This document shows positions 4,842 to 28,488 of a DNA stretch of 32,000 nt, piece by piece; the stretch's first letter is position 1; each line of letters begins with the position of its first letter. Source of the DNA: Methylorubrum extorquens (GTDB lineage: Bacteria > Pseudomonadota > Alphaproteobacteria > Rhizobiales > Beijerinckiaceae); contig LT962688.1 of assembly GCA_900234795.1 (NCBI GenBank), positions 2,550,001 through 2,582,000 on the forward strand, read 5' to 3'. The translations under genes and the position numbers were made by a program. Below the pieces are notes generated by a model. That model searched no databases. It was not told the DNA's origin and saw only the letters and a list, made by a program, of their open reading frames with translations.

Positions 4842-6251
4842 ATGTCCGCACCTCTCTCGCAGCACGGCCCCTCCCTTCTCGATGCAGGCGCGGATGCCGT
4901 CCCGATCCGCTGCGTGACGGAGGAAGGATGGGGCGCTGTCGCCGCCGGATTGCCCCCGCTCCAGCGCAGCTTTGCCGACGCCACCGGCTTTGCCCCCAAG
5001 GCCGGTCGCGTCGCCCTCCTACCCGGCGACGACGGCGGGCTCGGCAGCGTGCTGTTCGGCCTGGGCGACGCGAAAGCAGGCGGTCGCGACCGCTTTCTCG
5101 CCGGAAAGCTGCCGGGCGCCCTGCCCCCGGGCGATTACCGGTTCGAGCCTTCCGACGGTTTCGATGAGAGCGAGGCGGCGCTGGCGTGGCTGCTCGGCAG
5201 CTACCGGTTCGAGCGCTACCGCAAGCCGGGCGAGTCGCGCCCGCGCCTCGTCGCCCCGGACGGAATCGACGCGGCGGCGATCGAACGGCTCGCGGCTGCG
5301 GTCGCGGCCGGACGCGACCTCGTCAACATCCCGGCGAACGATCTCGGACCGGCCGAAGTCGAGGCCGCCGTGCGAGCGCTGGGCGAGCGGTTCGGTGCGA
5401 CGGTCTCCGTGACCATCGGCGCGGATCTCGAGAAAGAGTTTCCTCTCGTCCATGCCGTCGGCGCCGCCTCGCCGCGGGCGCCCCGCCTCATCGATCTCAC
5501 CTGGGGGGCCGAGGGCGCGCCGCGGGTGACGCTGGTCGGCAAGGGCGTCGTGTTCGACACCGGCGGGCTCGACATCAAGCCGGCCTCCAACATGCTGCTG
5601 ATGAAGAAGGATATGGGTGGCGCTGCCGCAGCCCTGGCGGCGGCCGAGATGATCATGGGCGCCGGCCTGCCCGTGCGGCTGCGGCTGATCGTGCCGAGCG
5701 TCGAGAACGCCATTGCCGGCGACGCCTTCCGGCCCGGCGACGTGATCCGCTCCCGCGCCGGCCTCACCGTCGAGATCGGCAACACAGACGCGGAGGGGCG
5801 CCTGATCCTCGCCGACGCGCTGGCGCTAGCCGATGCCGAGGCGCCGGACCTCATCCTCGATTTCGCGACGCTGACCGGCGCCGCCCGCGTGGCGCTGGGT
5901 CCCGATCTGCCGGCCTTCTTCACCGAGGACGAGGGCCTGGCGGCTGCGGTCGCGGAAGCGGGCCTGCGCGTCAACGATCCGGTCTGGCGCCTGCCCCTGC
6001 ACCTACCCTATGCGAGCCTACTCGATTCGAAGGTCGCCGACCTCAACAATGCGCCGGGCGGTGGCTTTGCCGGGGCGATCACCGCCGCCCTGTTCCTGCG
6101 CCGCTTTGTGCGCCGGACCCAAGCGCACGTACATTTCGACCTCTACGGCTGGAATCCCTCAACCAAGCCCGGCCGACCGGAGGGCGGCGAGGTCCAGACC
6201 GCCCGCCTCGCCTACGCCCTGGTGGCCGAGCGGTACGGCCGCGACGTTTGA
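4842..6251 (+). CDS. Leucyl aminopeptidase family protein (peptidase M17)
   Basis: M17 catalytic-domain signatures are present: VGKGVVFDTGGLDIKP and IGNTDAEGRLILADAL. 469 aa. Confidence 0.9.
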   Translation: MSAPLSQHGPSLLDAGADAVPIRCVTEEGWGAVAAGLPPLQRSFADATGFAPKAGRVALLPGDDGGLGSVLFGLGDAKAGGRDRFLAGKLPGALPPGDYRFEPSDGFDESEAALAWLLGSYRFERYRKPGESRPRLVAPDGIDAAAIERLAAAVAAGRDLVNIPANDLGPAEVEAAVRALGERFGATVSVTIGADLEKEFPLVHAVGAASPRAPRLIDLTWGAEGAPRVTLVGKGVVFDTGGLDIKPASNMLLMKKDMGGAAAALAAAEMIMGAGLPVRLRLIVPSVENAIAGDAFRPGDVIRSRAGLTVEIGNTDAEGRLILADALALADAEAPDLILDFATLTGAARVALGPDLPAFFTEDEGLAAAVAEAGLRVNDPVWRLPLHLPYASLLDSKVADLNNAPGGGFAGAITAALFLRRFVRRTQAHVHFDLYGWNPSTKPGRPEGGEVQTARLAYALVAERYGRDV

Positions 6252-13457: not shown

Positions 13458-14259
13458 CGACGCGGCCATCGCCCCTCTGCGCGCGGCAGGCTTTGCCGGC
13501 CCCTACGCCCTGGCGATCGTGACGGGGACCGGGCTCGGTGCCCTGGTCGAGGCGGTCGCGGATCGCGTCAGCCTCGATTACGCGGCGATTCCCGGCTTTC
13601 CCGCCCCCGGCGTCAGCGGCCATGGCGGCCGGCTGCATCGCGGGCGCCTGTCGGGGCGGCCGGTGCTCGTGTTCGAGGGGCGGACCCACGCCTACGAGAC
13701 CGGCGACGCTGCCGCCATGCGGGTGCCGCTCGCCGCCGCGCGGGCGCTCGGCGCGGCGCGGCTGCTGCTCACCAACGCCGCCGGTTCGCTGCGCCCGGAG
13801 ATCGGCCCCGGCCGCCTCGTGATGCTGGCCGACCACATCAACCTGTCCGGCCTCAATCCCCTGATCGGGGAGCCGAGCGACGCCCGCTTCGTGCCGATGA
13901 CGGAGGCCTACGATCCGGGCCTGCGCGCTCACCTCAGTGCGGCGGCCGAGGCAATCGGGTTGCCGCTGCCTACGGGCGTCTACGCATGGTTCTCGGGCCC
14001 GAGTTTCGAGACGCCGGCCGAGGTGCGCATGGCCGGGATTCTCGGCGCCGACCTCGTCGGCATGTCCACCGTGCCGGAAACGATCCTCGCCCGGTTCCTC
14101 GGCATGCCGGTGGCGGCGATCTCCGTGGTGACGAACCTCGCCGCGGGGATCGCGGGCGGAGACCCGCACCATGCCGAAACCAAGGCGGTCGCCGCCCGCG
14201 CCGGGGCGGATCTCGCCCGGCTCGTCGCCGGCTTCGTCGGCCGGCTGCCCGAAGCGTAG
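13447..14259 (+). CDS. Purine nucleoside phosphorylase (PNP/MTAP family, inosine-guanosine type)
   Basis: Motifs [40 protein letters not shown] and VGMSTVPE. Overlaps the cdd stop by 11 nt, indicating an operon. Confidence 0.9.
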
Positions 14260-14268
14260 GGAACACGG

Positions 14269-15042
14269 ATGACCGCTTCAGCCCCCCTCCCCCCGCAGGA
14301 TGCGGCCCGAGTCAGGGCGGATCTGGCGCGGCGCGCCCTGCCGCTGCTCGATCTCACCGACCTGAGCGACGCCTGCACCGCTGCCGCCGTCGAGGAGCTG
14401 TGCGAGAAGGCCCGCGCGAGCGGGGTCGCGGCCGTCTGTGTCTGGCCGCGCTTCGTCGCCGATTCGGTCCGTGGGCTTCGCGGAAGTGGCGTTCGGGTCG
14501 CCACCGTCGTCAACTTTCCGGAGGGCGGCGAGGCGGTGGAGCGCACGGTCGCGGAGACGCAGGCCACCCTTGCGGACGGCGCCGACGAGATCGACCTCGT
14601 CCTGCCCTATCGCGCTTTGATGCGCGGCGACGCGGAGAGTGCCCGTGCCATGGTGGAGGCCGTGCGCGCGGCCTGCGCGGGCCGGCTTCTCAAGGTGATC
14701 CTGGAGACCGGCGAGCTCGAAGACCCGGACCTGATCGCGCAGGCAAGCCGCCTGTCGCTCGAAGCCGGAGCCGATTTCATCAAGACCTCCACCGGCAAGA
14801 CCGTGGTCTCGGCGACGCTGCCGGCGGCCGAGATCATGCTGGACGCGATCCGTGCGCGCGGCGACGACCGGCCTGTGGGGCTCAAGGTCTCGGGTGGCCT
14901 GCGCCGGGTCGAGGATGCCGCCGCGTATCTCGCGCTCGCCGACCGGATCATGGGGCCGGATTGGGCGAGCCCGAACACCTTCCGCCTCGGCGCCAGCGCG
15001 CTCCACGCCGAACTCGTGCGCGCCGGCGAGGCTGCCCGATGA
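14269..15042 (+). CDS. deoC: Deoxyribose-phosphate aldolase
   Basis: LIDLTDL-type start (LLDLTDLSD) and Schiff-base lysine context DFIKTSTGK. 257 aa, the long DeoC form. Confidence 0.88.
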
Positions 15043-16349
15043 GGCTTCCCCAGGAGATCATCCGCGACAAGCGCGACGGACGCGCCCTGTCGGAGGCCGA
15101 CATCGCCGGCTTCATCGAGGGGCTGACGCGGGATCAGGTCACCGAGGGGCAGGCCGCGGCGTTTGCCATGGCGGTGTTCTTCCGCGGTCTCTCGCTCGAC
15201 GAGCGCGTGGCGCTGACCCGCGCCATGACGCATTCGGGGACGGTGCTCGCGTGGGATCTGCCCGGCCCCGTCCTCGACAAGCACTCCACCGGCGGCGTTG
15301 GCGACACCGTAAGCCTTCCGCTTGCCGCGATGGTCGCGGCCTGCGGCGGCTACGTGCCGATGATCTCCGGGCGTGGCCTCGGACATACCGGCGGCACGCT
15401 GGACAAGCTCGCGAGCATTCCCGGCTACGACGTGACGCCGGGCCTCAATCGCTTCCGCAAAGTCACGGCCGAGGCCGGCTGCGCCATCATCGGCCAGACC
15501 GCCGAGCTCGCGCCGGCCGACCGGCGCCTCTACGCGATCCGCGACGTCACCGGAACGGTGGAATCGCTCGACCTCATCACCGCATCGATCCTGTCGAAGA
15601 AGCTCGCGGCGGGGCTCCAGGGCCTCGTCATGGATGTGAAGACCGGCTCCGGCGCCTTCATGGCCCGTCGCGAGGATGCGCAGGCGCTCGCCGAGAGCAT
15701 CGTGACGGTCGCCAACGCGGCGGGCCTGCGCACCCGCGCGCTCATCACCGACATGGATGCCCCCCTGGCCTCCTGCGCCGGCAACGCGGTCGAGGTGGCC
15801 TATGCCGTCGATTACCTCACCAGTCGCGCCCGCGAACCGCGCTTCCACGCCGTGACGATGGCGCTGGCCACCGAGATGCTGGTGATCGGGGGGCTGGCTG
15901 CAAACATCGCGGAGGCGGAGGGGCGGCTGACGGCGGCGCTCGAATCGGGCCGGGCCTGCGAGGCCTTCGCACGGATGGTGGCGGCGCTGGGCGGCCCCGG
16001 CGACTTCGTCGAGGCGGCAGACCGGCACCTGCCCCCGGCGCCGGTCGTGCGACCAGTGCTGGCGCAGGAAGCGGGCGTGGTGGAGGCGGTGGAGACCCGC
16101 GCCATCGGCCTCGCGGTGATCGACCTTGGCGGCGGGCGCACCCGGCCGCAGGATGCCATCGACGCCCGCGTCGGTTTCACCGGCCTCGCGCGGCCGGGCG
16201 ACCAACTGTCACCGAACGATCCGATCGGCATCGTCCACGCCGCGGACGATGCCGCCGCCAAGCGGGCAGCGGCATCGCTTCGGGCGGCCTATCGGATCGG
16301 TGCAACGCCACCGGAGCCACGCAAGGCCGTACTGGAGCGCTTGGGCTGA
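15039..16349 (+). CDS. deoA: Thymidine phosphorylase
   Basis: ATG 15039 overlaps the deoC stop (ATGA). [14 protein letters not shown]..., [10 protein letters not shown] and [15 protein letters not shown] are canonical DeoA motifs. Confidence 0.92.
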
Positions 16350-16375: not shown

Positions 16376-16702
16376 CTACCAGTGGTGGCGGTGGCCCCAG
16401 TGCCGGCGGTGATGGCCCCAGTGGCCGTGATGGTGATGGCGGTGGCCCCAGTGGCGGCGGTGATGCCCCCAATGGCCGTGATGGTGGTGGCGGTGACCCC
16501 AATGGCGGGGATGGTGACGGTGGCCGAAATGGTGGTGCTGCCATTGCACCGTCTCGACGGTCGCCTCCGAGGCGAGAGCCGCTTCCGGAGCCGGCGCGAG
16601 CGGAGCAGCGTTGGCGGTGCTCGCGCCGAACAGGCCGCCGGCCATCAGGGCCAGTGCGGCGAAGGCGAAGCGGGTTCGACGCCCCAAGGATGTGTCCGAC
16701 AT
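16376..16702 (-). CDS. Small exported histidine/tryptophan/arginine-rich repeat protein (unknown function)
   Basis: ATG 16702 is preceded by GGAGG at 7-nt spacing. Signal peptide MSDTSLGRRTRFAFAALALMAGGLFGASTANA|AP. The last 56 residues are 28 His, 9 Arg, 8 Gly and 7 Trp, with HWGHRHHHHGHWGHHRR repeated. Confidence 0.75.
   Translation of the reverse strand: MSDTSLGRRTRFAFAALALMAGGLFGASTANAAPLAPAPEAALASEATVETVQWQHHHFGHRHHPRHWGHRHHHHGHWGHHRRHWGHRHHHHGHWGHHRRHWGHRHHW
16379..16546 (-). repeat. 51-bp (17-codon) tandem coding repeat, about 3 copies
   Basis: Units 16390-16440 and 16441-16491 are near-identical (ggtggccccagtg.cggcggtgatg.ccc.a.tggccgtgatggtg.tggc). A degenerate third copy follows to about 16540. 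Confidence 0.85.
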
Positions 16703-16966: not shown

Positions 16967-17647
16967 TCAGACCGTGCCGGCCTTCGGCTCCGGGCGCCGA
17001 TAAACCCAGACGCGGGCCGGGGGCAGGTTGAGCCAGACGCGGTTGGAGCGGCTCGCCGTGTAGCTGCCCGCCTCGCACTTCGCCGGGATCGGCGGCACGA
17101 CGGCGTAGGTGAACTGCACGAAGGGCGCGCCGGGATGCATCAGGTCGTGGGCGCCTTGCAGCAGTTCGAAGCGCTGCTCCAGCGGCTTGGTGAACAGGGG
17201 CAGGCTGGAGATCGTGGCGGCGCAGAGGCTGCCGAGCCGGTCGCGCAGCGTCTCGCGAATCCGATAGGCGTCGCCGCAGATCACGGTCACGCCGGGGAAG
17301 CGGCGGCGCAGCAGCGTGCAGAAATCGGGGTTGAACTCGACGAGGACGAGCCGGTCCTGATCGAAGCCGCGGCGGATCAGGGCCTCGGTCACAGGGCCGG
17401 TGCCCGGTCCAAGCTCGATCACGGGGCCGCTGACATTCGGGTCGGCATAGGCGGCCATGGTGCGCGCGAGCATCCGTCCCGAGGGTGTGACCGCGCCCGT
17501 GACGAGCGGACGCTCGAACCAGGAGCGCAGAAAGCGCGCCTCGTCCTCCAAGGGATCTTTGCGCTCACGGACGGTGCGTGCGGCGGAGACGGCGCGGGCA
17601 CTGGAACGGCGAAGCGGCGGCACGTCCGAAGGTCCTCGGCTCATCAT
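16967..17647 (-). CDS. pmtA: Class I SAM-dependent methyltransferase, phospholipid N-methyltransferase (PmtA)-like
   Basis: FLRSWFERPLVTGAVTPSG, SAM-binding VIELGPGTG, and the C-terminal NLPPARVWVYRRP resemble rhizobial PmtA-type phosphatidylethanolamine N-methyltransferases. Recalled similarity, not searched. Confidence 0.65.
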   Translation of the reverse strand: MMSRGPSDVPPLRRSSARAVSAARTVRERKDPLEDEARFLRSWFERPLVTGAVTPSGRMLARTMAAYADPNVSGPVIELGPGTGPVTEALIRRGFDQDRLVLVEFNPDFCTLLRRRFPGVTVICGDAYRIRETLRDRLGSLCAATISSLPLFTKPLEQRFELLQGAHDLMHPGAPFVQFTYAVVPPIPAKCEAGSYTASRSNRVWLNLPPARVWVYRRPEPKAGTV

Positions 17648-17781: not shown

Positions 17782-18939
17782 TCACGCCCGCGTCGCGCCG
17801 CTCACGAAGAAGTCACGCACCTTCGAGAAAAACCCGGCACTCTCCGGGTGGTTCTCGTCCGAGGCGCTCTGGTCGAACTCCTGCAACAGCTCGCGCTGGC
17901 GCTTGGTGAGATTCTGCGGCGTCTCCACCGAGACCTGGATGTAGAGGTCGCCGACCTCCCGCGAGCGCAGCACCGGCATGCCCTTGCTCTTGATGCGGAA
18001 CTGCTTGCCCGTCTGGGTGCCGGCCGGGATGCGCACTTGCGTCTGCGAGCCGTCGATCACCGGCACGGTGATTTCGCCCGAGAGAGCGGCCGTCACCATC
18101 GAGATCGGAACGCGGCAAAACAGGTCGGCTCCGTCGCGCTGGAAGAACGGGTGCGGCTTGATCGAGAGGAAGACGTAGAGGTCGCCCGCCGGCCCGCCGC
18201 GCATGCCGCTCTCACCCTCGCCCGCGAGTCGGATGCGCAGACCGTCATCGACGCCCGCCGGCACGTTGATCGACAGCGTGCGCTCGCGGTTGACCCGGCC
18301 CGCGCCGGAGCAGGCCGTGCAGGGATCGTCCACCATCTCGCCGCGGCCGTGGCAGTTCGGGCAGGTCCGCTCGATGGCGAAGAAGCCCTGCGCCGCCCGC
18401 ACCCGGCCGTAGCCGCCGCAGGTCGAGCAGGTGCGCGGCTTCGAGCCCGCCTTGGCGCCCGTCCCCGAGCAGGTCTCGCAGGCGATCGAGGTCGGGATGC
18501 GGATGGTTTCGGTCTTGCCAGCGAAGGCCTCTTCGAGGCTGATTTCGAGGTTGTAGCGCAGGTCCGAGCCGCGCTCACGGCCCGGTGCGCCGCCGCGCCC
18601 GCGTCCCGCCCCGCCGCCGGGAGCCGCGCGTCCATCCCCGAAGAAGTTCTCGAAGATGTCCGACATGAAGTCGCCGAACTCGTTGCCGAATCCGGGGCCG
18701 CCCGCGCCGCCCTGACTGAAGGCGGCGTGACCGAAGCGGTCATAGGCCGCGCGCTTCTGGCCGTCGGAGAGGCACTGATAGGCCTCGTTGACTTCCTTGA
18801 ACTTGATCTCGGCTTCCTTGTCGCCGGGATTGCGGTCTGGGTGATGCACCATGGCCAGCTTGCGGAAGGCGACCTTCAGCTCGCTCTCCGAGGCCGTCTT
18901 CGCGACGCCCAAGACCTCGTAATAGTCCCGCTTCGACAT
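17782..18939 (-). CDS. dnaJ: Molecular chaperone DnaJ
   Basis: J-domain [12 protein letters not shown]...HPDRNPGD, a G/F-rich region, and four CxxCxGxG zinc-finger repeats ([32 protein letters not shown]). Confidence 0.97.
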
Positions 18940-18940
18940 A

Positions 18941-19456
18941 TCAGTTCGCCCAGGGAAGTCGTTCAGGCATCGAGCGCTCAGTCTTCTTGATGCCTACTTG
19001 TTCTTCGCAATCTGAAAGATTGCTCGCATATTTTGAGCGCCCATCCTCGTACCATTTGAAGAGGGCGTCTTGCTCCGGAAGGAGGTTTATTGACTTCTCG
19101 TCATCGATTTTGACAGTCATAGCCTTCGGGTTGAGCGCGTAGACTGCCCCAGCGACGGCTTCATTTAGCCCCTTTTCCGCTTCCGCGCAGGAATGATGGG
19201 ATGCGGCAGGTTTGGATGTCGTCAAGCCGAGGAATCCGCTGACAAGAAGAAGCCTTAGATTGTCGCGCTGTTTTATCGCTTCAGAGAGATTGCGCTCGGC
19301 CAGTATCATGTTTTGGTGGAGACTGCGCATCTCACCCCGGACCCCCGACTCCTCTCGCAATTGAGGATCCAGCTTTGATTCGGCGTGCGTCGCTCCCGAT
19401 GCGCATATCAGAATCACGAACGCAGCACCAACGGTACGAGAAACGAAGAGGGGCAC
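18941..19456 (-). CDS. Hypothetical exported protein encoded by a low-GC insert between dnaK and dnaJ
   Basis: The reading frame stays open for 226 codons through DNA of roughly 50% GC. In-frame GTG 19456 gives [25 protein letters not shown]|ESK, which looks like a signal peptide; alternative ATG 19330. The stop TGA 18943-18941 lies 1 nt before the dnaJ ATG. No family recognised. Confidence 0.55.
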
Positions 19457-19480
19457 GGCTGGAGCAAGCCCAGCCGTGCC
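19436..19480 (-). terminator. Hairpin plus T-rich tract just downstream of dnaK (intra-operon attenuator/terminator)
   Basis: The minus strand reads GGCACGGCTGG (19480-19470), loop GCTTGCT, CCAGCCGTGCC (19462-19452), then CCTCTTCGTTTCTCG. The 11-bp stem is perfect. Confidence 0.55.
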
Positions 19481-19514
19481 GATGTTCCTCGTTCGCAGAC
19501 GAATCACGATCGCC

Positions 19515-21434
<1,920 letters not shown>

Positions 21435-21590: not shown

Positions 21591-21619
21591 ATATAAGAAG
21601 ACGGCTACGCCGCCGCAAG
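21591..21619 (-). promoter_or_regulatory. Candidate RpoH (sigma-32) heat-shock promoter of dnaK
   Basis: The minus strand reads CTTG (21619-21616), an 18-nt spacer, then CTTATAT (21597-21591). This matches the alphaproteobacterial RpoH-type pattern CTTG-N17/18-CYTATNT and implies a leader of about 150 nt. Confidence 0.5.
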
Positions 21620-21827
21620 AACGGCCGCAAGAACGGCGCTCAACGGTTGAGCGGCGGGCGTCATCCTTCGCCGCGCCGGGGCCGCTTTCCGAGGTGCGAC
21701 TCCGAGAGGAAGACTTGTTTGTTGCCAGGCTGCCACGTCCGCGCCACGGGTGACGTGCTAGGACACCGGCATATGGCTCATGCATACCGCCCGTGAAGTG
21801 GCGGCAAACCGGGAGGCCGACCGCCTG

Positions 21828-22856
21828 ATGTTCCTGCCCGTGTCCGAAAGGGTTTTCGCGAAGAAGCCTCGCCCGTTGCGCGTCGCGACGGGGGCGTTGC
21901 TCGTGCTTGCCGGCCTGGCCGTGGTGCCGGCCACCCCGGCGCGGGCGCAGAACTTCTTCGAGGAGCTGTTCGGCATCGGGCGGGCGGCCCGTCCCCCGCA
22001 GCCGCCGCGCAACGTGCCCGTCCAGCCGCCGCCGCAACCCATGGAGCCCGGCGCTCCGGCGCCGGGTGAAGGCGCCGAGACGCGGCCGAGCGTGCCGGCC
22101 CAGCCCCGCCAGCCCGTGGTGCTGCGGGTGCCGGCCGAGGACAACGTCGTGGGTCAGGACCTGCTGCTGAACGGGCTGAACGGATCGCTGAAGATCGAGC
22201 GGAGCGGCTCGGCCTATACCGCCCAGATGACGCTGCCGGGCACCAAGATCTCGCAGCCGACCGAGAACTGCACGGTCAAGCTCGACGGCGGCAAGCCGAT
22301 GCCGCTGAGCGCCGAAGGCCGCGCACAGGGCGTCTCCCGCTTCTCGACGGCGAGCGCCGAATGCCCGCTGCGCTTCGAGATCCTCGACGGCAGCGTGCTC
22401 GCCACGCCGCTCGGCTCGGGGGCGGCCTGCACCTTCACGGCGGCGGATTGCGAGACGACGCCGTCAGGCCTGTGGGGACCGAACGCCGCCGCGCTGCTCT
22501 CGCAGGCGGGCGAGTTCGACACCGCCCGCGGCGTCGCCGACAAGGCGGTGCGGGACAATTACAAGATCATGACCCAGCGGGCGCGGGGCGGCGACGTCCG
22601 CCCGATCGTGCAGGAGCAGGCGGCGTTCTCTTCCGACCGCGAGCAAGCCTGCCGGACCTATGCCCGCGAGGGCGCGCACGGCTATTGCCACCTGCGCTTC
22701 ACCGAAGCGCGGGCGATCGCGCTCGCAACCCGGCTCGGCGCCAACACCGCGACGCCGACGGCGGCGAACGCTCCGGCACGACCCCGTCGCAGCCGTGCAC
22801 CGGTGGAGGGGATGAACCCTGACGCCCAGGGCGCGGAACCGTTCGCCGACCAATAG
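21828..22856 (+). CDS. Secreted proline-rich / six-cysteine protein of unknown function
   Basis: Start set at ATG 21828 (MFLPVSERVFAKKPRPLRVATGALLVLAGLAVVPATPARA|QN). A Pro-rich linker is followed by a domain with six Cys. The C-terminal segment QEQAAFSSDREQACRTYAREGAHGYCHLRFTEARAIAL is weakly reminiscent of the LprI/DUF1311 fold. Confidence 0.6.
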   Translation: MFLPVSERVFAKKPRPLRVATGALLVLAGLAVVPATPARAQNFFEELFGIGRAARPPQPPRNVPVQPPPQPMEPGAPAPGEGAETRPSVPAQPRQPVVLRVPAEDNVVGQDLLLNGLNGSLKIERSGSAYTAQMTLPGTKISQPTENCTVKLDGGKPMPLSAEGRAQGVSRFSTASAECPLRFEILDGSVLATPLGSGAACTFTAADCETTPSGLWGPNAAALLSQAGEFDTARGVADKAVRDNYKIMTQRARGGDVRPIVQEQAAFSSDREQACRTYAREGAHGYCHLRFTEARAIALATRLGANTATPTAANAPARPRRSRAPVEGMNPDAQGAEPFADQ

Positions 22857-22958
22857 GCCGCGTGGCGCTTCTCACAACGCCGTAGGCATCGTCGCACGGG
22901 CGGAACTCTGCGTTTGGCGCGGATGTTGGCCGGAGGTTCACGCGAAGCGAGCCCGGCC

Positions 22959-25379
22959 ATGCCCGACGAGAAGATCGAAGCCTATACCGACCCGGCCGGC
23001 GGATTGGGGTCGGCCCGCTCGCTCATCGACATCCTGACCCGCGAGGAGATCCCGGCTTCCGGCGCGGCGATGCTGATGAAGCAGAACAAGCCGGGCGGCT
23101 TCATGTGCGTGTCCTGCGCATGGTCGAAGCCAGCCAAGCCGTCCACGTTCGAATATTGCGAGAACGGCGCCAAGGCGACCGCTTGGGAGCAGACCCGCAA
23201 GCGGATCGGTCCCGACTTCTTCGAGCGCCACTCGGTCACCGAATTGCTGACCTGGCCGGACTATGACCTCGAGGAGAAGGGCCGGCTGACGCACCCCCTG
23301 CGCTATGATCCGCAGCGAGACCGCTACGTGTCCGTCTCATGGGAAGAGGCCTTCGCGGAGATCGGCCACGAGCTGAAGGCTCTGCGCGAAACGGACCCGA
23401 CCTCGGCGGTGTTCTACTCGTCGGGCCGGGCTTCGCTGGAGACGAGCTACATGTACGCGCTGTTCGCGCGCATGTACGGCAACAACAACCTGCCCGACTC
23501 CTCCAACATGTGCCACGAATCGACCTCGAAGGCGCTGCCGCAATCGATCGGCGTCCCTGTCGGCACGACGGTGCTGGAGGATTTCGAGAGTACCGACCTG
23601 ATCCTGTTCTTCGGACAGAATGTCGGTTCGAATTCGCCGCGGATGCTCCACCCGCTGCAGGACGCCCGCCGCCGGGGCGTGCCCATCATCACCTTCAACC
23701 CGCTGCGGGAGCGCGGGCTGGAGCGTTTCACCAACCCGCAATCGCCCGTCGAGATGCTGACCCATTCCTCGACGCAGATCTCGACCCAGTACCATCAGGT
23801 GAAGGCCGGCGGCGACATCGCGGCGCTCGGCGGCATCTGCAAGGCGCTCTTCGCCATGGACCGAGAGGCGCAGGCGGAAGGGCGCCCGCGCATTTTCGAT
23901 ATCGATTTCATCGCCGAGCACACCCACGGCTTCGATAAGTTCGAAAAGTTCTGCGACCGGCTCGAATGGCCTGCGCTGGAGACCAAGTCCGGCCTGAGGC
24001 GCGAAGGGATGGAGGCCGCCGCTGCCGTCTACGCCCGCGCGCGGGCGGTGATCGGCATCTACGGGATGGGCCTGACCCAGCACCGCCGCGGCACCGAGAC
24101 GGTGCAGATGTTCGTCAACCTGCTGCTCCTGCGCGGCAATATCGGGCGGCCCGGCGCCGGCATCTGCCCCGTGCGCGGCCACTCGAACGTGCAGGGCCAG
24201 CGCACCGTCGGCATCGCCGACGAGCCATCGCTGGTGCCGCTCGATAAACTCAAGGAGATGTACGACTTCGAGCCGCCCCGCGAGAAGGGGATGAACACGG
24301 TCGAGACCTGCGAAGGCGTTCTCTCCGGCAAGGTGAAGGCTTTCGTCGGGCTCGGGGGCAATTTCATCCGCGCGGTGCCCGACACGAAGCGGATGGAGGA
24401 AGCGTGGCGCTCGCTGCGTCTCACCGTGCAGGTCTCGACCAAGCTCAACCGCTCGCACCTCGTGCACGGTGAGGTCGCCTACATCCTGCCCTGCCTCGGC
24501 CGGATTGAGGTGGACGAGCAGGCGAGCGGGCCGCAGGCCGTGTCGATGGAGGACTCGACCTCCTGCTTCCATGGCTCGCGCGGCGTCGCCCGGCCGGTGA
24601 GCGACCATGTGCGCTCCGAGCCCTGGATCGTGGCGCAACTGGCCAAGGCGACGCTGCCGGCCAACCCCAAGGTCGATTGGAACGCCTGGGTCGGCGATTA
24701 CGCGCGGGTGCGCGACGCCATCGAGGCGACCTATCCGGAGAAGTTCAAGAACTTCAACGCGCGCCTGTTCGAGCCCGGCGGGCAGCACAAGCCGATCGCC
24801 GCGCGCGAGCGCAAATGGGAGACGTCCACCGGCAAGGCGAACTTCGTCGTGCCGCCGGACGGGCTCGACATGGACCCGGACATGAAGAGCGACCGGCGCG
24901 ACGTGCTCGACCTCATCACGCTGCGCTCGAACGATCAGTTCAACACCACGATCTACGGCTATCACGACCGCTTCCGCGGGGTGAAAGGCACCCGCCAAGT
25001 GCTGTTCATGAACGAGAACGACATCGAGCGGCTGCAACTCACCGATGGTGAGACCGTCGATGTCGTGACCGAGGCCGCCGACGAGTTCGCCCGCGAGGTG
25101 AAGGGCCTGAGGATCGTCAAGTACGACATCCCCGCCGGCAATTGCGCCGGCTACTACCCGGAGCTGAACGTGCTGATCCCGCTCTGGCACCATGATGCCC
25201 AGGCCAAGGTGCCGGCGGCCAAGGCGATTCCCGTGCGGATCGCCAAGGCGGCGACATTGGCCGTGAGGGGACTGAGCAGGGGCTCGTCCGGCTCCGCCGG
25301 CTCGGCGTCCGACGGCGATCAAGATTGTACAGCGTGCAAATCATCACTTGCACGCTGTGCAAACCAGGCTCATCCCTAA
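22959..25379 (+). CDS. FdhF/YdeP-family molybdopterin oxidoreductase
   Basis: MPDEKIEAYTDPAGGLGSARS... aligns by eye with the E. coli YdeP N-terminus (MKKKIESYQGAAGGWGAV). Also present: the Cys cluster GGFMCVSCAWSKP...FEYCENGAKA and the length of molybdopterin-binding enzymes. The last 45 or so codons (Ser/Gly-rich, Cys-containing) read through a strong hairpin and may not be conserved. Confidence 0.85.
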   Translation: MPDEKIEAYTDPAGGLGSARSLIDILTREEIPASGAAMLMKQNKPGGFMCVSCAWSKPAKPSTFEYCENGAKATAWEQTRKRIGPDFFERHSVTELLTWPDYDLEEKGRLTHPLRYDPQRDRYVSVSWEEAFAEIGHELKALRETDPTSAVFYSSGRASLETSYMYALFARMYGNNNLPDSSNMCHESTSKALPQSIGVPVGTTVLEDFESTDLILFFGQNVGSNSPRMLHPLQDARRRGVPIITFNPLRERGLERFTNPQSPVEMLTHSSTQISTQYHQVKAGGDIAALGGICKALFAMDREAQAEGRPRIFDIDFIAEHTHGFDKFEKFCDRLEWPALETKSGLRREGMEAAAAVYARARAVIGIYGMGLTQHRRGTETVQMFVNLLLLRGNIGRPGAGICPVRGHSNVQGQRTVGIADEPSLVPLDKLKEMYDFEPPREKGMNTVETCEGVLSGKVKAFVGLGGNFIRAVPDTKRMEEAWRSLRLTVQVSTKLNRSHLVHGEVAYILPCLGRIEVDEQASGPQAVSMEDSTSCFHGSRGVARPVSDHVRSEPWIVAQLAKATLPANPKVDWNAWVGDYARVRDAIEATYPEKFKNFNARLFEPGGQHKPIAARERKWETSTGKANFVVPPDGLDMDPDMKSDRRDVLDLITLRSNDQFNTTIYGYHDRFRGVKGTRQVLFMNENDIERLQLTDGETVDVVTEAADEFAREVKGLRIVKYDIPAGNCAGYYPELNVLIPLWHHDAQAKVPAAKAIPVRIAKAATLAVRGLSRGSSGSAGSASDGDQDCTACKSSLARCANQAHP
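25326..25361. promoter_or_regulatory. Large dyad symmetry / hairpin (14-bp arms, 8-nt centre)
   Basis: TGTACAGCGTGCAA (25326-25339), atcatcac, TTGCACGCTGTGCA (25348-25361). The 11 inner bp are perfect and the outer 3 pair with one G-T. It lies inside the last codons of the YdeP-like ORF, 56 nt upstream of pspA. Confidence 0.5.
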
Positions 25380-25404
25380 GGGCGTGACGACGCGGTCACG
25401 CCCT
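25379..25404 (+). terminator. GC-rich hairpin between the ydeP-like gene and pspA
   Basis: AGGGCGTGAC (25379-25388), gacgcg, GTCACGCCCT (25395-25404). The 10-bp stem is perfect and starts in the stop codon of the upstream gene. There is no U-tract, and the pspA SD (GGAG 25406-25409) follows immediately. Confidence 0.4.
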
Positions 25405-25416
25405 CGGAGTGATGCC

Positions 25417-26110
25417 ATGTTGACGCTGTTGCGAACCCTCGCCCGCGGTGCTGCCGCCCAAGCCTGCGAGGAGGCCCACGACCGCCACGCCCTCCTCGTG
25501 CTCGATCAGCAGATCCGCGAGGCCGCCGCCGATCTGGAGCGCGGCCGGCGCATGCTGGCCGCAGCCATGGCCGGGGACAGCGCGGAGGCGCGGCGTCTCA
25601 CGCAGGTCGAGGCTCGCGCCGCCGACTTGGAGACCCGCGCCGTGGCCGCGCTTGCGGCGGGCCGCGAGGATCTGGCCCGTGAGGCGGCCGAGGCGATCAC
25701 GAGCCTTGAGGCCGAGTGCGACGCCCTACGCGCCGCACGGGCGACCTTCGCGGACGAGGTGGTCCGGATGCGCACGGTGCTCGCCGACGCGACCCGGCGA
25801 CAGGCGGCCCTGGAGCGCGGGCGGCGGGTCGCGGCGGCGTCCGAAGCGGTCCGGCGTCTGCGCCGGACGGAGGGTGTGCGGGATCGCGCGACGTTGCGGG
25901 AAGCCGAGGCGACGCTGGCCCGGCTTCAGCGCACCCAGGCCGAGGCGACGGACACCGACGACGCGCTGGCCGCGATCGAGATGCCCGAGGAGACCCTTGC
26001 CGAGCGCCTCGAACGGGAGGGTTTCGGGCCCCGGACGCGCCCCCTCCTCCGACGAGGTGCTCGCCCGCCTGCGAAGCCGCGCCGAGGCCGCTCGCGCCGC
26101 TTCCGTCTGA
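25417..26110 (+). CDS. pspA: PspA/IM30 family protein, apparently frameshifted at a C5 run (the as-written frame continues to 26262)
   Basis: GGAG lies 7 nt before ATG 25417. Long coiled-coil Ala/Arg/Glu-rich sequence typical of PspA/IM30. After ...EREGFGPRTRP (C-run 26040-26044) the written frame becomes Arg/Pro/Ser junk that overlaps the next gene by 121 nt. The +1 frame reads SSDEVLARLRSRAEAARAASV-stop at 26110, just before the next RBS. Confidence 0.75.
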
Positions 26111-26141
26111 TCCACCCTCCCGCGTTCCAAGGAATTCAGCC

Positions 26142-26414
26142 ATGTCCCAAGAGACTGCGCAGCATACCGGCGCCTGGGTCGTGTTCACCCAAGCCTCCTT
26201 CGTCGCCTCCGCCGCGCTCGTCGGCTTCGGCATCCTGTTCATGCCCCTCGATTTCTGGATGAAGGGCTATCTCGCCATGGGCACGGTGATGCTGATCCAG
26301 TCCTGCATCACCGCCACCAAGACGCTCCGCGACGTCCATGAGGGCCGCCGCATGGTCAACCGCCTGGAGGATGCCCGCACCGAGCGCCTGCTGATGTCGG
26401 TCGGCAAGGAGTGA
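26142..26414 (+). CDS. YiaA/YiaB-type two-helix inner membrane protein
   Basis: AAGGAA lies 7 nt before ATG 26142. 90 aa with two TM helices. KGYLAMGTVMLIQSCITATKTLRD resembles the YiaAB-domain motif (E. coli YiaA [24 protein letters not shown]). Confidence 0.7.
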   Translation: MSQETAQHTGAWVVFTQASFVASAALVGFGILFMPLDFWMKGYLAMGTVMLIQSCITATKTLRDVHEGRRMVNRLEDARTERLLMSVGKE

Positions 26415-26497: not shown

Positions 26498-26791
26498 ATG
26501 GACAGTTCGGACGGAGCTCACGCGCGACGGCAGGCGATCATCGATCGCTTGCTCAGCGACGCCCTGCGCCCGGCCGGCGGGATCGTGCTGCCGAGCCACG
26601 ATGCCCTGCCGGCCGACATCCGCATGACGGTCGATCGCCTGCTCGCCAAGGCGGATGCCGAGCGCCGCCGCTCGCTGACCTACGACGATCTCGAAGAGGC
26701 GTTGCCGCCCCGCGACGTCACCGCCGACGATCTGGAAGCGATCTTCTGGGTGCTGGCGGAATACGGGATCGAACTCGACGAGGGCGACTAG
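26498..26791 (+). CDS. Stand-alone sigma-70 region 1.1-like protein
   Basis: The 97-aa acidic protein has RSLTYDDLEEALPPRDVTADDLEAIFWVLAEYGIELDE, which parallels RpoD region 1.1 (E. coli GYLTYAEVNDHLPEDIVDSDQIEDIIQMINDMGIQV). Confidence 0.65.
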   Translation: MDSSDGAHARRQAIIDRLLSDALRPAGGIVLPSHDALPADIRMTVDRLLAKADAERRRSLTYDDLEEALPPRDVTADDLEAIFWVLAEYGIELDEGD

Positions 26792-28488
26792 CCCTCGGCC
26801 CCCAGCAGTAGCCGTGCCGCCGCCGCGCGCGCCTCGTCGGTGACGGTGGCGCCGGCCAGCATCCGGGCAATCTCTTCCCGGCGCGCATCCGCCGCGAGCC
26901 CGACCACCCGGGTCGTCACCCGGTCGGCGCTCTTCTCCGCGCCCTTGGCCGCTTTCCCCTTCACACTGTCCTTCGCGATGCGGAAATGCGTCACCGCGCG
27001 GGCGGCGACCTGCGGCGCGTGGGTCACGGCCACGACCTGAACCTGCTCCGAGAGACGGCCGAGCCGCGCGCCGATGGCGTCGGCCACCGCGCCGCCGAGG
27101 CCGGTGTCGATCTCGTCGAAGATCAGCGTCGGCGCCGAGCCCTTGCCGGCGAGCACGACCTTGAGCGCCAGCATGAAGCGGGACAGCTCGCCGCCGGATG
27201 CGACCTTCATCATCGGGCCGGCGCGGGTGCCGGGATTGGTCTGCGCCCAGAACTCGACCCGCTCGGTGCCGGCGGCGTCGCGCGAGGCTTCGTCCACGGT
27301 GATCTGCGTGATGAAACGGGCGCCCTCCAGCTTCAGCGGCGGCAACTCGGCCTGCACCGCCGCATCGAGCGCCTTGGCCGCCTTGCGGCGCCCGTCGCCG
27401 AGCCGCTTGGCGGCCTGGGCATAGGCCGCTTCCGCCGCCGTGAGTTCGGCCTCGAGCCCGGCAAGCGCCTGCTCGCCGGCATCGAGGGCGGCCACGTCCG
27501 CATCGTAGCGGCTGCGCAGGTCGGCGAGGTCGTCGGCCGGGACCGAATATTTTCGCGACGCGGCGCGCAGGGCGAATAGCCGTTCCTCGACACGCTCCAG
27601 CTCGCGCGGATCGAACTCGGCGGCGAGCACCGCGGCATCGAGGGCGGCGCGCGCCTCGTCCAGTGCGACGAGGGCCGCATCGAGCGCGGCGATGCTCGGA
27701 TCGACAAGGGTCGGCACCGTGGCGCTGCGCCGCTCCAGCCGGCGCACGGCGGAGGAGAGATGCGGCACGAGCGAGCCGGAGCCGCCGACGAGGTCGAGCG
27801 CTTCGTTCAACTCGCGGGCGACCTTCTCGCCCTGCTGCATCAGAGTGCGGCGCTCGGCGAGCTTGGCCTCCTCGCCCGCCTGCGGATCGAGGGTGCCGAG
27901 TTCCTCCACCGCGTGGCGGAGGAAGTCGGCTTCCTTCTGCGCGGCCTCGACGCGTTCGCGCTGCTCGGCAAGCGTCGAGCGGGCGGCGCGAACGCGTTTG
28001 GCGGCCGAGGCCACCTGCGCCAGCGGACCCTGAAGCCCGCCGAACGCATCGAGGATGCTGCGGTGGGTGGTAGGGTCGGCCAAGGCCCGGTCGTCGTGCT
28101 GGCCGTGGATCTCGACGAGCGCCGTGCCGATCGCTCGCATGGTCTGCACGCCGACCGGCTGGTCGTTGACGAAGGCGCGGGTGCGTCCGTCGGCGAATTG
28201 CGTGCGGCGCAGGATCAGGTCGCCGTCGGTGTCGATCTCGGCCGCCGCCGCGACGGCACGGGCGGGATGGTCGAGGGCCACGTCGAACACGGCGGTGACG
28301 CCGCCCTGCGCCTCCCCCTGCCGCACGAGACCGCCATCGCCGCGCCCCCCGAGCGCCAGGGCGAACGCGTCAAGCAGGATCGATTTGCCCGCACCGGTCT
28401 CGCCCGTGAGAACGGTGAGCCCCCCGGAGAAGGTCAATTCGAGCTTGTCGATCAGAACGATGTCGCGGATCGCGAGCTGGACGAGCAT
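26788..28488 (-). CDS. recN: DNA repair protein RecN
   Basis: MLVQLAIRDIVLIDKLELTFSGGLTVLTGETGAGKSILLDA (Walker A), a long coiled-coil middle, and C-terminal SGGELSRFMLALK / LIFDEIDTG (signature and Walker B). Confidence 0.95.
   Translation of the reverse strand: MLVQLAIRDIVLIDKLELTFSGGLTVLTGETGAGKSILLDAFALALGGRGDGGLVRQGEAQGGVTAVFDVALDHPARAVAAAAEIDTDGDLILRRTQFADGRTRAFVNDQPVGVQTMRAIGTALVEIHGQHDDRALADPTTHRSILDAFGGLQGPLAQVASAAKRVRAARSTLAEQRERVEAAQKEADFLRHAVEELGTLDPQAGEEAKLAERRTLMQQGEKVARELNEALDLVGGSGSLVPHLSSAVRRLERRSATVPTLVDPSIAALDAALVALDEARAALDAAVLAAEFDPRELERVEERLFALRAASRKYSVPADDLADLRSRYDADVAALDAGEQALAGLEAELTAAEAAYAQAAKRLGDGRRKAAKALDAAVQAELPPLKLEGARFITQITVDEASRDAAGTERVEFWAQTNPGTRAGPMMKVASGGELSRFMLALKVVLAGKGSAPTLIFDEIDTGLGGAVADAIGARLGRLSEQVQVVAVTHAPQVAARAVTHFRIAKDSVKGKAAKGAEKSADRVTTRVVGLAADARREEIARMLAGATVTDEARAAAARLLLGAEG

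Follow-up and report, generated by a model that had tools for sequence, protein, structure and literature searches.

Why should dnaK-dnaJ, among the most conserved and best-studied of bacterial operons, harbour a gene for an apparently exported protein between its two chaperone genes? The question is raised by a 32-kb stretch of Methylorubrum extorquens DNA (contig LT962688.1, positions 2,550,001 to 2,582,000; hereafter the window), in which dnaK and dnaJ are separated by a spacer of 575 nt that is filled by a single open reading frame (ORF), here called gene X. An earlier note on this DNA had proposed a horizontally acquired, foreign-looking gene under heat-shock control, on whose translation DnaJ synthesis may depend. 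From a comparison of the locus with its relatives, we consider it probable that the spacer is an allele in which X has replaced the usual sequence, that the X product is exported and that DnaJ synthesis is coupled to the translation of X. The case would be one of translational coupling combined with the capture of an operon by an accessory gene of an undescribed protein family.

Gene X and its product

The ORF coordinates agree with the reported gap between the dnaK stop and the dnaJ ATG (Table 1). The spacer has a GC content of 0.55, compared with 0.694 over the whole window, and is the lowest-GC stretch of its length in the 32 kb (minimum 0.544 at 18876); a recount returned exactly the 50 and 51 G+C previously given for positions 18941-19040 and 19041-19140. 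At third codon positions the GC content (GC3) is 0.59 in X, 0.93 in dnaK and 0.90 in dnaJ. One frame, on the strand of the chaperone genes, is open from the dnaK stop to the TGA before dnaJ, the other five containing 3-11 stops each. The probability of meeting no stop over 191 codons at the spacer's composition is about 4e-4, which bears out the earlier view that chance is an improbable explanation. Translation from GTG 19456 yields the 171-aa product that had been described, a second in-frame GTG at 19507 would give 188 aa, and the TGA of X indeed lies 1 nt from the dnaJ ATG.

Syntenic copies of X between dnaK and dnaJ were found in M. salsuginis (locus L001, 54% amino-acid identity) and on a JGI metagenome contig (L002, 75%), both with the 1-nt junction seen in the window. 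Across these three Methylorubrum alleles the ratio of nonsynonymous to synonymous substitution rates (dN/dS) is 0.23-0.27 in the ORF frame versus 1.0-1.5 in the two shifted frames, and the differences cluster at third codon positions; their GC3 is 0.54-0.59 versus 0.89-0.95 in the flanking chaperone genes. The window and M. salsuginis genes align over 188 codons without an indel, at a synonymous distance (dS) of about 1.4. Within a Bradyrhizobium-like group of loci, the dS and dN values give a dN/dS of about 0.2-0.35. A 226-aa form of the ORF is on record as SOR29411.1, 'protein of unknown function [Methylorubrum extorquens]', and a 171-aa protein of M. zatmanii (WP_129545763.1) is 99% identical to X. 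Judged by its substitution pattern, X is a real coding gene, as the earlier note had claimed, and is under purifying selection.

An alternative is that the open frame arose by chance or is decaying within a non-coding regulatory spacer (a terminator, a processing site or a small RNA) and that no protein is made from it. This would accord with the missing Shine-Dalgarno site before either candidate start, with the strong hairpin in which the X start sits and with a codon usage that differs from the host's. However, an open frame of this length is improbable by chance, the low dN/dS is found in the X frame alone, homologues at 24-41% identity share the length and architecture of X, and the AlphaFold2 (AF2) prediction is confident. 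Rfam likewise provides no match, as nothing reaches the gathering score in the window and only chance-level matches fall in the spacer. The comparative data effectively refute the non-coding alternative, to which we assign next to no probability.

The X protein has the predicted features of a Sec substrate. In the window, a positively charged n-region, a hydrophobic h-region within the usual 10-15 residues and the THA motif ahead of the cleavage site are those expected of a protein exported by Sec and processed by signal peptidase I. An h-region is present in 20 of 20 full-length family members, and in 19 of them it is followed by a small-x-small motif with E or Q after the cut, so the signal peptide proposed previously appears to be conserved family-wide. 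No lipobox (L-[ASTVI]-[GAS]-C) occurs in X, where the Cys of the h-region follows I-L-I (I-L-L in M. salsuginis); this Cys is missing in most members. The two Cys noted earlier in the mature part proved invariant, all 20 full-length members having exactly two. AF2 modelling of the mature 146 aa from a 24-sequence alignment gave a predicted local distance difference test score (pLDDT) of 92.1 and a predicted template modelling score of 0.84, with four helices and a small beta-hairpin; it supersedes a model from 4 sequences (pLDDT 67.7), whose fold search was uninformative. The C-terminal tail is conserved before the stop as R-x-(L/M)-P-x-(R/K)-L-P. This architecture indicates a periplasmic, disulfide-bonded protein, and our guess at its role is a periplasmic stress-related function co-induced with DnaK and DnaJ.

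Foldseek matched the X model only to generic helical bundles, both in the PDB (best E 0.08, not significant) and in the BFVD viral fold library (best E 0.21), and a sequence-profile search of the PDB gave nothing below E 0.5. Pfam and NCBIfam contain no match to X, a spurious mobB at E 0.013 being all that NCBIfam returned, and no Pfam family is common to 24 members of the X family. The earlier statement that the product belongs to no recognisable family thus holds for Pfam, NCBIfam, PDB and BFVD, and a check for a match to any known conserved family, on which the claim of novelty hung, returned none; a family exists, but it is undescribed.

The vague resemblance to LprI (DUF1311, PF07007) that had been suggested was rejected. 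LprI and X are both small, exported, helical and Cys-containing. The LprI profile (gathering score 22 bits) is nevertheless unlisted for X at E <= 10 and for the 24 members at E <= 1, and no LprI structure is among the 50 best PDB fold matches shown. If any product of the window resembles LprI, it is that of a 358-aa ORF divergent from dnaK (21780-22856, +), in which an apparent signal peptide and a Pro-rich region are followed by a C-terminal part with Cys; the last gives a weak, sub-threshold LprI match (PF07007, E 0.2) and a DUF5642 match (E 0.032). At the same position M. salsuginis has a 342-aa gene without a Pfam match (L001 2679-3707).

Distribution and origin of the family

A word-indexed search of 5.8 billion proteins recovered Methylorubrum relatives only. 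With HMMER, a full scan across 1.84 billion representatives yielded 19 proteins at E <= 1e-3, with lengths of 81-215 aa, most of which (160-215 aa) were matched nearly end to end, and the family comprises about 25 sequence clusters. Genomic context was read at 15 loci. In every one X lies directly upstream of dnaJ, with gaps of 1, 1, 1, 12, -4, 2, 2, 3, 6, 6, 7, 6, 6, 0 and 9 nt, and dnaK lies directly upstream of X in 12 of the 13 loci readable on that side. The hosts are Methylorubrum, the isolate Microvirga sp. 2MCAF38, several contigs that we take to be Bradyrhizobium-like from the look of their DnaK and DnaJ, and a pair of long metagenomic contigs whose synteny matches that of the order. 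A metagenome scan with Methylorubrum-specific peptide patterns gave no confirmed X locus, tblastn against plasmid and phage collections found no homologue at E <= 1, and the gene tables of the loci read contain no recombinase gene. The whole-family alignment has no conserved stretch of 7-10 columns. Searching the literature for genes located in the dnaK-dnaJ interval and for coupling of dnaJ produced a single relevant paper, on the enterobacterial spacer. The family is rare and undescribed and, at the loci read, confined to the site upstream of dnaJ in a few soil and plant bacteria.

In all loci the GC3 of X is below that of its neighbours (0.45-0.73 versus 0.76-0.95). Since it is low in each family member, whatever the host, the odd composition is a family trait and not the mark of a recent arrival, and the earlier reading of low GC as a sign of foreign origin needs revision.

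Among close relatives, X is variable. A DnaJ-based scan collected 80 Methylobacterium/Methylorubrum species loci, and neither tblastn nor hmmsearch --max with the family profile, run on six-frame translations of the 700 nt upstream of dnaJ, detected an X homologue in any of them; all 77 other loci of these genera that were checked lack X. The spacers measurable in 75 of these loci are 100-409 nt long and about 70% GC; dnaK and dnaJ are thus not near-adjacent in relatives, contrary to what had been supposed. The nearest relatives of the window without X are M. aminovorans (DnaJ 98%), M. thiocyanatum, M. podarium, strain B4 (97%) and M. zatmanii LMG 6087 (94%). The spacers of these five are about 235 nt long and mutually alignable, and they carry a canonical terminator, a hairpin followed by TTTTTT after dnaK. 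Homology between the window and these relatives ends at the dnaK stop and restarts at the dnaJ ATG. Local similarity between X-bearing and X-less spacers is no better than that of shuffles, and the same was true of a GATCCTC block in the MAFFT alignment that we had considered as residual spacer homology. The presence/absence polymorphism that the earlier note had suggested looking for was therefore found, with the spacer swapped exactly from stop to start codon. By the dS of dnaK and dnaJ, M. salsuginis is closest to the X-less M. subtropicum, M. rhodinum and Leaf456, and the window to the JGI contig and the X-less M. aminovorans, M. podarium and M. thiocyanatum; the X-bearing Methylorubrum alleles consequently fall in two subclades among X-less sisters.

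Other lineages retain what may be traces of the arrival of X. In L087, a metagenomic lineage where the gene upstream of X is not dnaK, X begins MSKRGYYEVSRVEKTATEAEMKSA; over their first 73 nt, X and the adjacent dnaJ are 86% identical. In L092, also metagenomic, X starts with a copy of about 90 nt from the dnaJ 5' end. In L091, where X follows a normal 133-nt post-dnaK spacer, X and dnaJ share their first four codons (ATGTCCAAGCGg). These duplicated dnaJ 5' ends, the only scars seen at X, look like the product of recombination, and because of them we propose that X reached its site by recombination at the dnaJ 5' end. Of the idea of a horizontally acquired foreign gene, the polymorphic replacement stands; a one-off foreign arrival does not, since all the loci read have the family at one position. 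In L091, a long inverted repeat, near-perfect and with each arm about 40 nt long (CATCCCCGGC...GGGGATCC / GGATCCCC...GCCGGGGATG), also lies in the dnaK-X spacer (4868-5000); it is more like a repetitive extragenic palindrome or a miniature inverted-repeat transposable element than a simple terminator.

X might instead be an old resident of the Hyphomicrobiales dnaK-dnaJ operon that was inherited vertically and lost in most lineages, without any insertion here. Its identity declines with DnaJ identity, from Methylorubrum through Microvirga and L091 to the Bradyrhizobium-like loci, X and dnaJ have about the same dS within the Bradyrhizobium-like group, and one position and one junction style recur across all hosts. 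Yet the X-less spacers of the five Methylorubrum relatives align with one another, no remnant of X was found upstream of dnaJ in the X-less loci searched, and two X-bearing subclades among X-less sisters would require several independent clean losses. The duplicated dnaJ 5' ends, at 86% identity in L087, point to insertion, and a GC3 of about 0.55 that persists in genomes of about 0.9 is hard to explain unless it is selected. We regard permanent residence as somewhat unlikely.

In Methylorubrum, X dS is 2-4 times dnaJ dS, as opposed to the near equality in the Bradyrhizobium-like group; the stronger codon bias of Methylorubrum dnaJ may explain part of this difference between groups. The excess would also suit a mainly selfish hitchhiker: a cassette passed by recombination from one dnaJ locus to another, of little benefit to the host and hard to lose, since the dnaJ ribosome-binding site is gone and deletion of X would cut DnaJ synthesis. 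The rarity and patchiness of the family (19 representative clusters in 1.84 billion proteins), its absence from the closest relatives, the atypical codon usage of X in every host, the duplicated dnaJ 5' ends in three lineages and the loss of the dnaJ Shine-Dalgarno site in X-bearing loci are all compatible with such an element. However, purifying selection acts along the entire X protein in several lineages, the Cys pair is invariant and the fold confidently predicted, and a pure spacer or addiction element needs no conserved exported domain. The lack of homologues in the plasmid and phage collections and of recombinase genes in the loci read argues in the same direction, and we judge a predominantly selfish X to be unlikely.

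Translation of dnaJ behind X

Shine-Dalgarno sites were scored by the energy of the duplex that the 16S 3' tail forms with the 18 nt at -20 to -3 of the start; the background median is -3.0 kcal/mol. Before dnaJ, this energy averages -6.5 kcal/mol in the 80 X-less loci, all of which are at <= -4.0. In the 12 X-bearing loci the mean is -2.4 kcal/mol, with 11 of 12 at >= -3.6; the window, at -2.8 kcal/mol, is at background level, in agreement with the earlier remark that no canonical site precedes dnaJ. In L087, L090 and L091, where a normal spacer precedes X, X itself carries a good Shine-Dalgarno site (-10.0, -8.3 and -6.9 kcal/mol); behind it dnaJ has none in L090 (-3.6) and L091 (-3.0), and L087 keeps one (-7.2). 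It seems that dnaJ has lost a ribosome-binding site of its own and depends on X for its translation. With a site before dnaJ in 80 of 80 X-less loci and none in 11 of 12 X-bearing ones, the coupling idea of the earlier note gains ground, and the dependence of DnaJ synthesis on ribosomes that finish X receives strong comparative support. When the window is compared with M. salsuginis, the identity of synonymous codons is about 0.8 in the first 30 and last 8 codons of X versus 0.25-0.5 mid-gene, which, as the numbers are small, is only suggestive of RNA-level constraint at both junctions.

On its 5' side, X is preceded by a 12-bp hairpin (19480-19452: GGCACGGCTGGG cttgc TCCAGCCGTGCC), which is followed by a U-poor tail, CCTCTTCGTT, and was a marginal match in the terminator scan. 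It is the dominant element of a surrounding 101-nt segment that folds at -47 kcal/mol (z -4.07), and it is kept in M. salsuginis with a compensatory T-A to C-G change. A stem of this length with 9 G-C pairs should not melt at heat-shock temperatures, and an RNA thermometer at the X start was rejected for that reason. Analogous hairpins occur at the Bradyrhizobium-like and Microvirga loci. There (L084 164-220, L085, L086, L088 5001-5060), two stable hairpins stand right after the dnaK stop, the first with a UUCG or UUUG loop (CCATGGCTTCGGCCATGG) and the second formed by the palindrome ATGGCCGGG...CCCGGCCAT, which reads in frame as MAGHVPAIR. Both lie in the X frame and contain ATG codons, so that gene callers disagree on the start of X.

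A start codon in frame and 2-7 nt past the dnaK stop is found in seven loci and in L093-L095 (Methylorubrum, Microvirga, Bradyrhizobium-like), and X may for this reason also be coupled to dnaK. In the window, the extension from GTG 19507 may be a translated leader providing such coupling, or it may be untranslated. Its frame and length are kept without an indel in M. salsuginis, and its dN/dS of 0.74, obtained from few sites, is uninformative.

The alphaproteobacterial heat-shock promoter consensus is CTTG-N17/18-CYTATNT. Upstream of dnaK, CTTG-N18-CTTATAT is the sole match on either strand of the window, and 12 other loci, among them Microvirga, L090 and L091, have an RpoH-type motif in the corresponding place, which favours the heat-shock promoter claimed earlier. 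A sigma-32-like CTTGAAA...CCCACCAT beside the dnaK ATG overlaps the start codon and was discarded for the conserved motif. A perfect 12-nt tandem repeat (GCCGCAAGAACG, 2.2 copies, 21612-21637) overlaps the -35 side of the RpoH-type motif.

We propose that X entered dnaJ loci by recombination at the dnaJ 5' end and took over the initiation region, leaving dnaJ to be translated behind it. The Methylorubrum spacer studied here would be an allele in which X replaced the usual non-coding spacer of about 230 nt and 70% GC, and with it an intrinsic terminator and the ribosome-binding site of dnaJ. The operon would be transcribed from the RpoH-type promoter of dnaK, with some transcripts running past the U-poor hairpin to carry X and dnaJ. 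The X protein would be exported via Sec, cut after THA and joined by a Cys65-Cys125 disulfide in the periplasm. Ribosomes that end X at its TGA would restart 1 nt further on at the dnaJ ATG, so that DnaJ synthesis would depend on the translation of X, and the poor codon usage of X, together with its weak, hairpin-embedded start, would hold DnaJ output below DnaK output.

Several points weigh against this proposal. The choice between the two X starts is uncertain, as neither GTG 19456 (-4.0), which lies in a very stable hairpin, nor GTG 19507 (-3.7) is preceded by a Shine-Dalgarno site. The good dnaJ site kept in L087 means that coupling is not obligatory everywhere. Old vertical inheritance with many losses would also suit the broad agreement of X identity with DnaJ identity and the roughly equal dS of X and dnaJ in the Bradyrhizobium-like group. 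Reinitiation is a step that we infer, as are co-transcription, export and the disulfide bond. An attenuator role for the low GC3 is speculation, and the composition could come from repeated transfer from lower-GC donors instead. Finally, none of the structural or sequence searches points to a relative that would give a functional clue. What the comparisons show throughout is a rare gene family that keeps to one address and is repeatedly linked to the start of dnaJ.

Table 1. Positions of the features at the dnaK-X-dnaJ locus (window numbering unless a locus is named).
Feature	Position	Strand	Remarks
dnaK	19515-21434	-	ORF, 639 aa; stop TAA 19517-19515; 98.9% identical to M. aminovorans DnaK
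dnaJ	17782-18939	-	ORF, 385 aa; 98% identical to M. aminovorans DnaJ
Gene X	18941..19456	-	171 codons, GTG 19456 to TGA 18943-18941; predicted to encode the precursor of a small exported protein; family undescribed
Possible 17-codon N-terminal extension of X	19457..19507	-	In-frame GTG 19507, 7 nt past the dnaK stop
G+C-rich hairpin, 12 bp	19452..19480	-	Terminator-like scan match; contains GTG 19456 in its 3' arm
X signal peptide (predicted)	19382..19456	-	n-region MPLFVSR, h-region of 12 residues, cleavage site between THA and ES
X mature domain, 146 aa	18944..19381	-	From alignment, AF2 model and Cys counts
X/dnaJ junction TGAtATG	18937..18943	-	X stop 1 nt ahead of the dnaJ ATG
RpoH (sigma-32)-type promoter motif CTTG-N18-CTTATAT	21591..21619	-	About 185 nt upstream of dnaK
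dnaJ 5'-end duplications	L087 179-260 and 740-815; L092 103-190 and 693-785		Decayed tandem copy of dnaJ codons 1 to 25-30

The gene order around dnaK-dnaJ is the same as in M. salsuginis. By Pfam, the neighbouring genes encode a thymidine/pyrimidine-nucleoside phosphorylase (13986-16349, +), a molybdopterin oxidoreductase (22914-25379, +), a PspA/IM30 family protein (25348-26262, +) and an SMC_N/AAA_23 ATPase that is RecN/RecF-like (26788-28488, -). Downstream of a methyltransferase gene (16967-17647, -), a G+C-rich stretch contains a tandem repeat at 16382-16508 with a 51-nt period (2.5 copies, 90% matches), whose minus-strand reading is Pro/Gly/Ser-rich (PPSPSPPLG...).

Relation to known systems

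Classical termination-reinitiation occurs at E. coli trpE-trpD and trpB-trpA and at other TGAnATG or ATGA junctions. As at the trp pairs, the upstream stop lies here within a few nt of the downstream start, and the downstream Shine-Dalgarno site is absent, so that translation of the second gene is expected to require ribosomes coming off the first. Unlike them, X is a strain-variable accessory gene for a predicted exported protein and has taken the place of spacer and ribosome-binding site in a conserved chaperone operon, and in X-less relatives dnaJ initiates independently.

Secretion-monitor leader ORFs are known from SecM-secA, VemP-secDF2 and MifM-yidC2. X resembles them in that an ORF with an export signal stands just upstream of a protein-biogenesis gene, whose translation it would govern, and ends in a conserved, proline-containing tail. 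It differs in encoding a full-length folded domain under selection, with a Cys pair, and not a short arrest peptide, in a coupling that would proceed by restart across a 1-nt gap and not by unmasking of a hairpin-held Shine-Dalgarno site, and in having a cytosolic co-chaperone gene downstream. X could nonetheless be an export-sensing leader, whose rate of completion and release reports the status of Sec or of the envelope and thereby sets DnaJ synthesis, because the dnaJ start would be reachable only via a finished X and X is a predicted Sec substrate with a proline-containing tail. The structure-held Shine-Dalgarno site that characterizes such monitors is missing, as dnaJ has none and the X/dnaJ junction is no more structured than shuffles (z +0.88), and to our knowledge the tail resembles no known arrest motif. 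We consider an export sensor very improbable; if X were one, it would be a SecM/VemP-like monitor acting on a cytosolic Hsp70 system and would link periplasmic and cytoplasmic quality control.

The dnaK operon of Thermus thermophilus includes the gene for DafA, a cytosolic protein of about 8 kDa that serves in the assembly of the DnaK-DnaJ complex. Like X, this is a small lineage-restricted gene inside a DnaK chaperone operon. The X protein is unrelated to DafA in sequence; it has a signal peptide, and its site of action would lie outside the cytoplasm.

In enterobacteria, the dnaK-dnaJ intergenic region is 85 nt long, encodes the small RNA tpke11 and has been proposed as a site of differential dnaK/dnaJ expression (PMC12077118). 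Both spacers offer a place for unequal expression of the two genes and have a hairpin after dnaK. The enterobacterial one is non-coding (PMC12077118), whereas a 171-codon gene stands here, and Rfam, tpke11 included, gave nothing at E <= 1 in the X spacer.

How the cellular DnaK:DnaJ ratio is set is still debated (PMC12077118). At the loci described here, an accessory gene for a predicted exported protein appears to have taken over the spacer, and the essential co-chaperone gene dnaJ is without its own ribosome-binding site in 11 of the 12 X-bearing loci. X would represent a new, confidently folded periplasmic family with no known relative and with expected co-induction alongside the heat-shock chaperones, and it exemplifies a gene family with one fixed chromosomal address and recognizable scars of insertion. 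The X-bearing and X-less alleles of sister species may thus serve as a natural system for translational coupling and co-chaperone levels.

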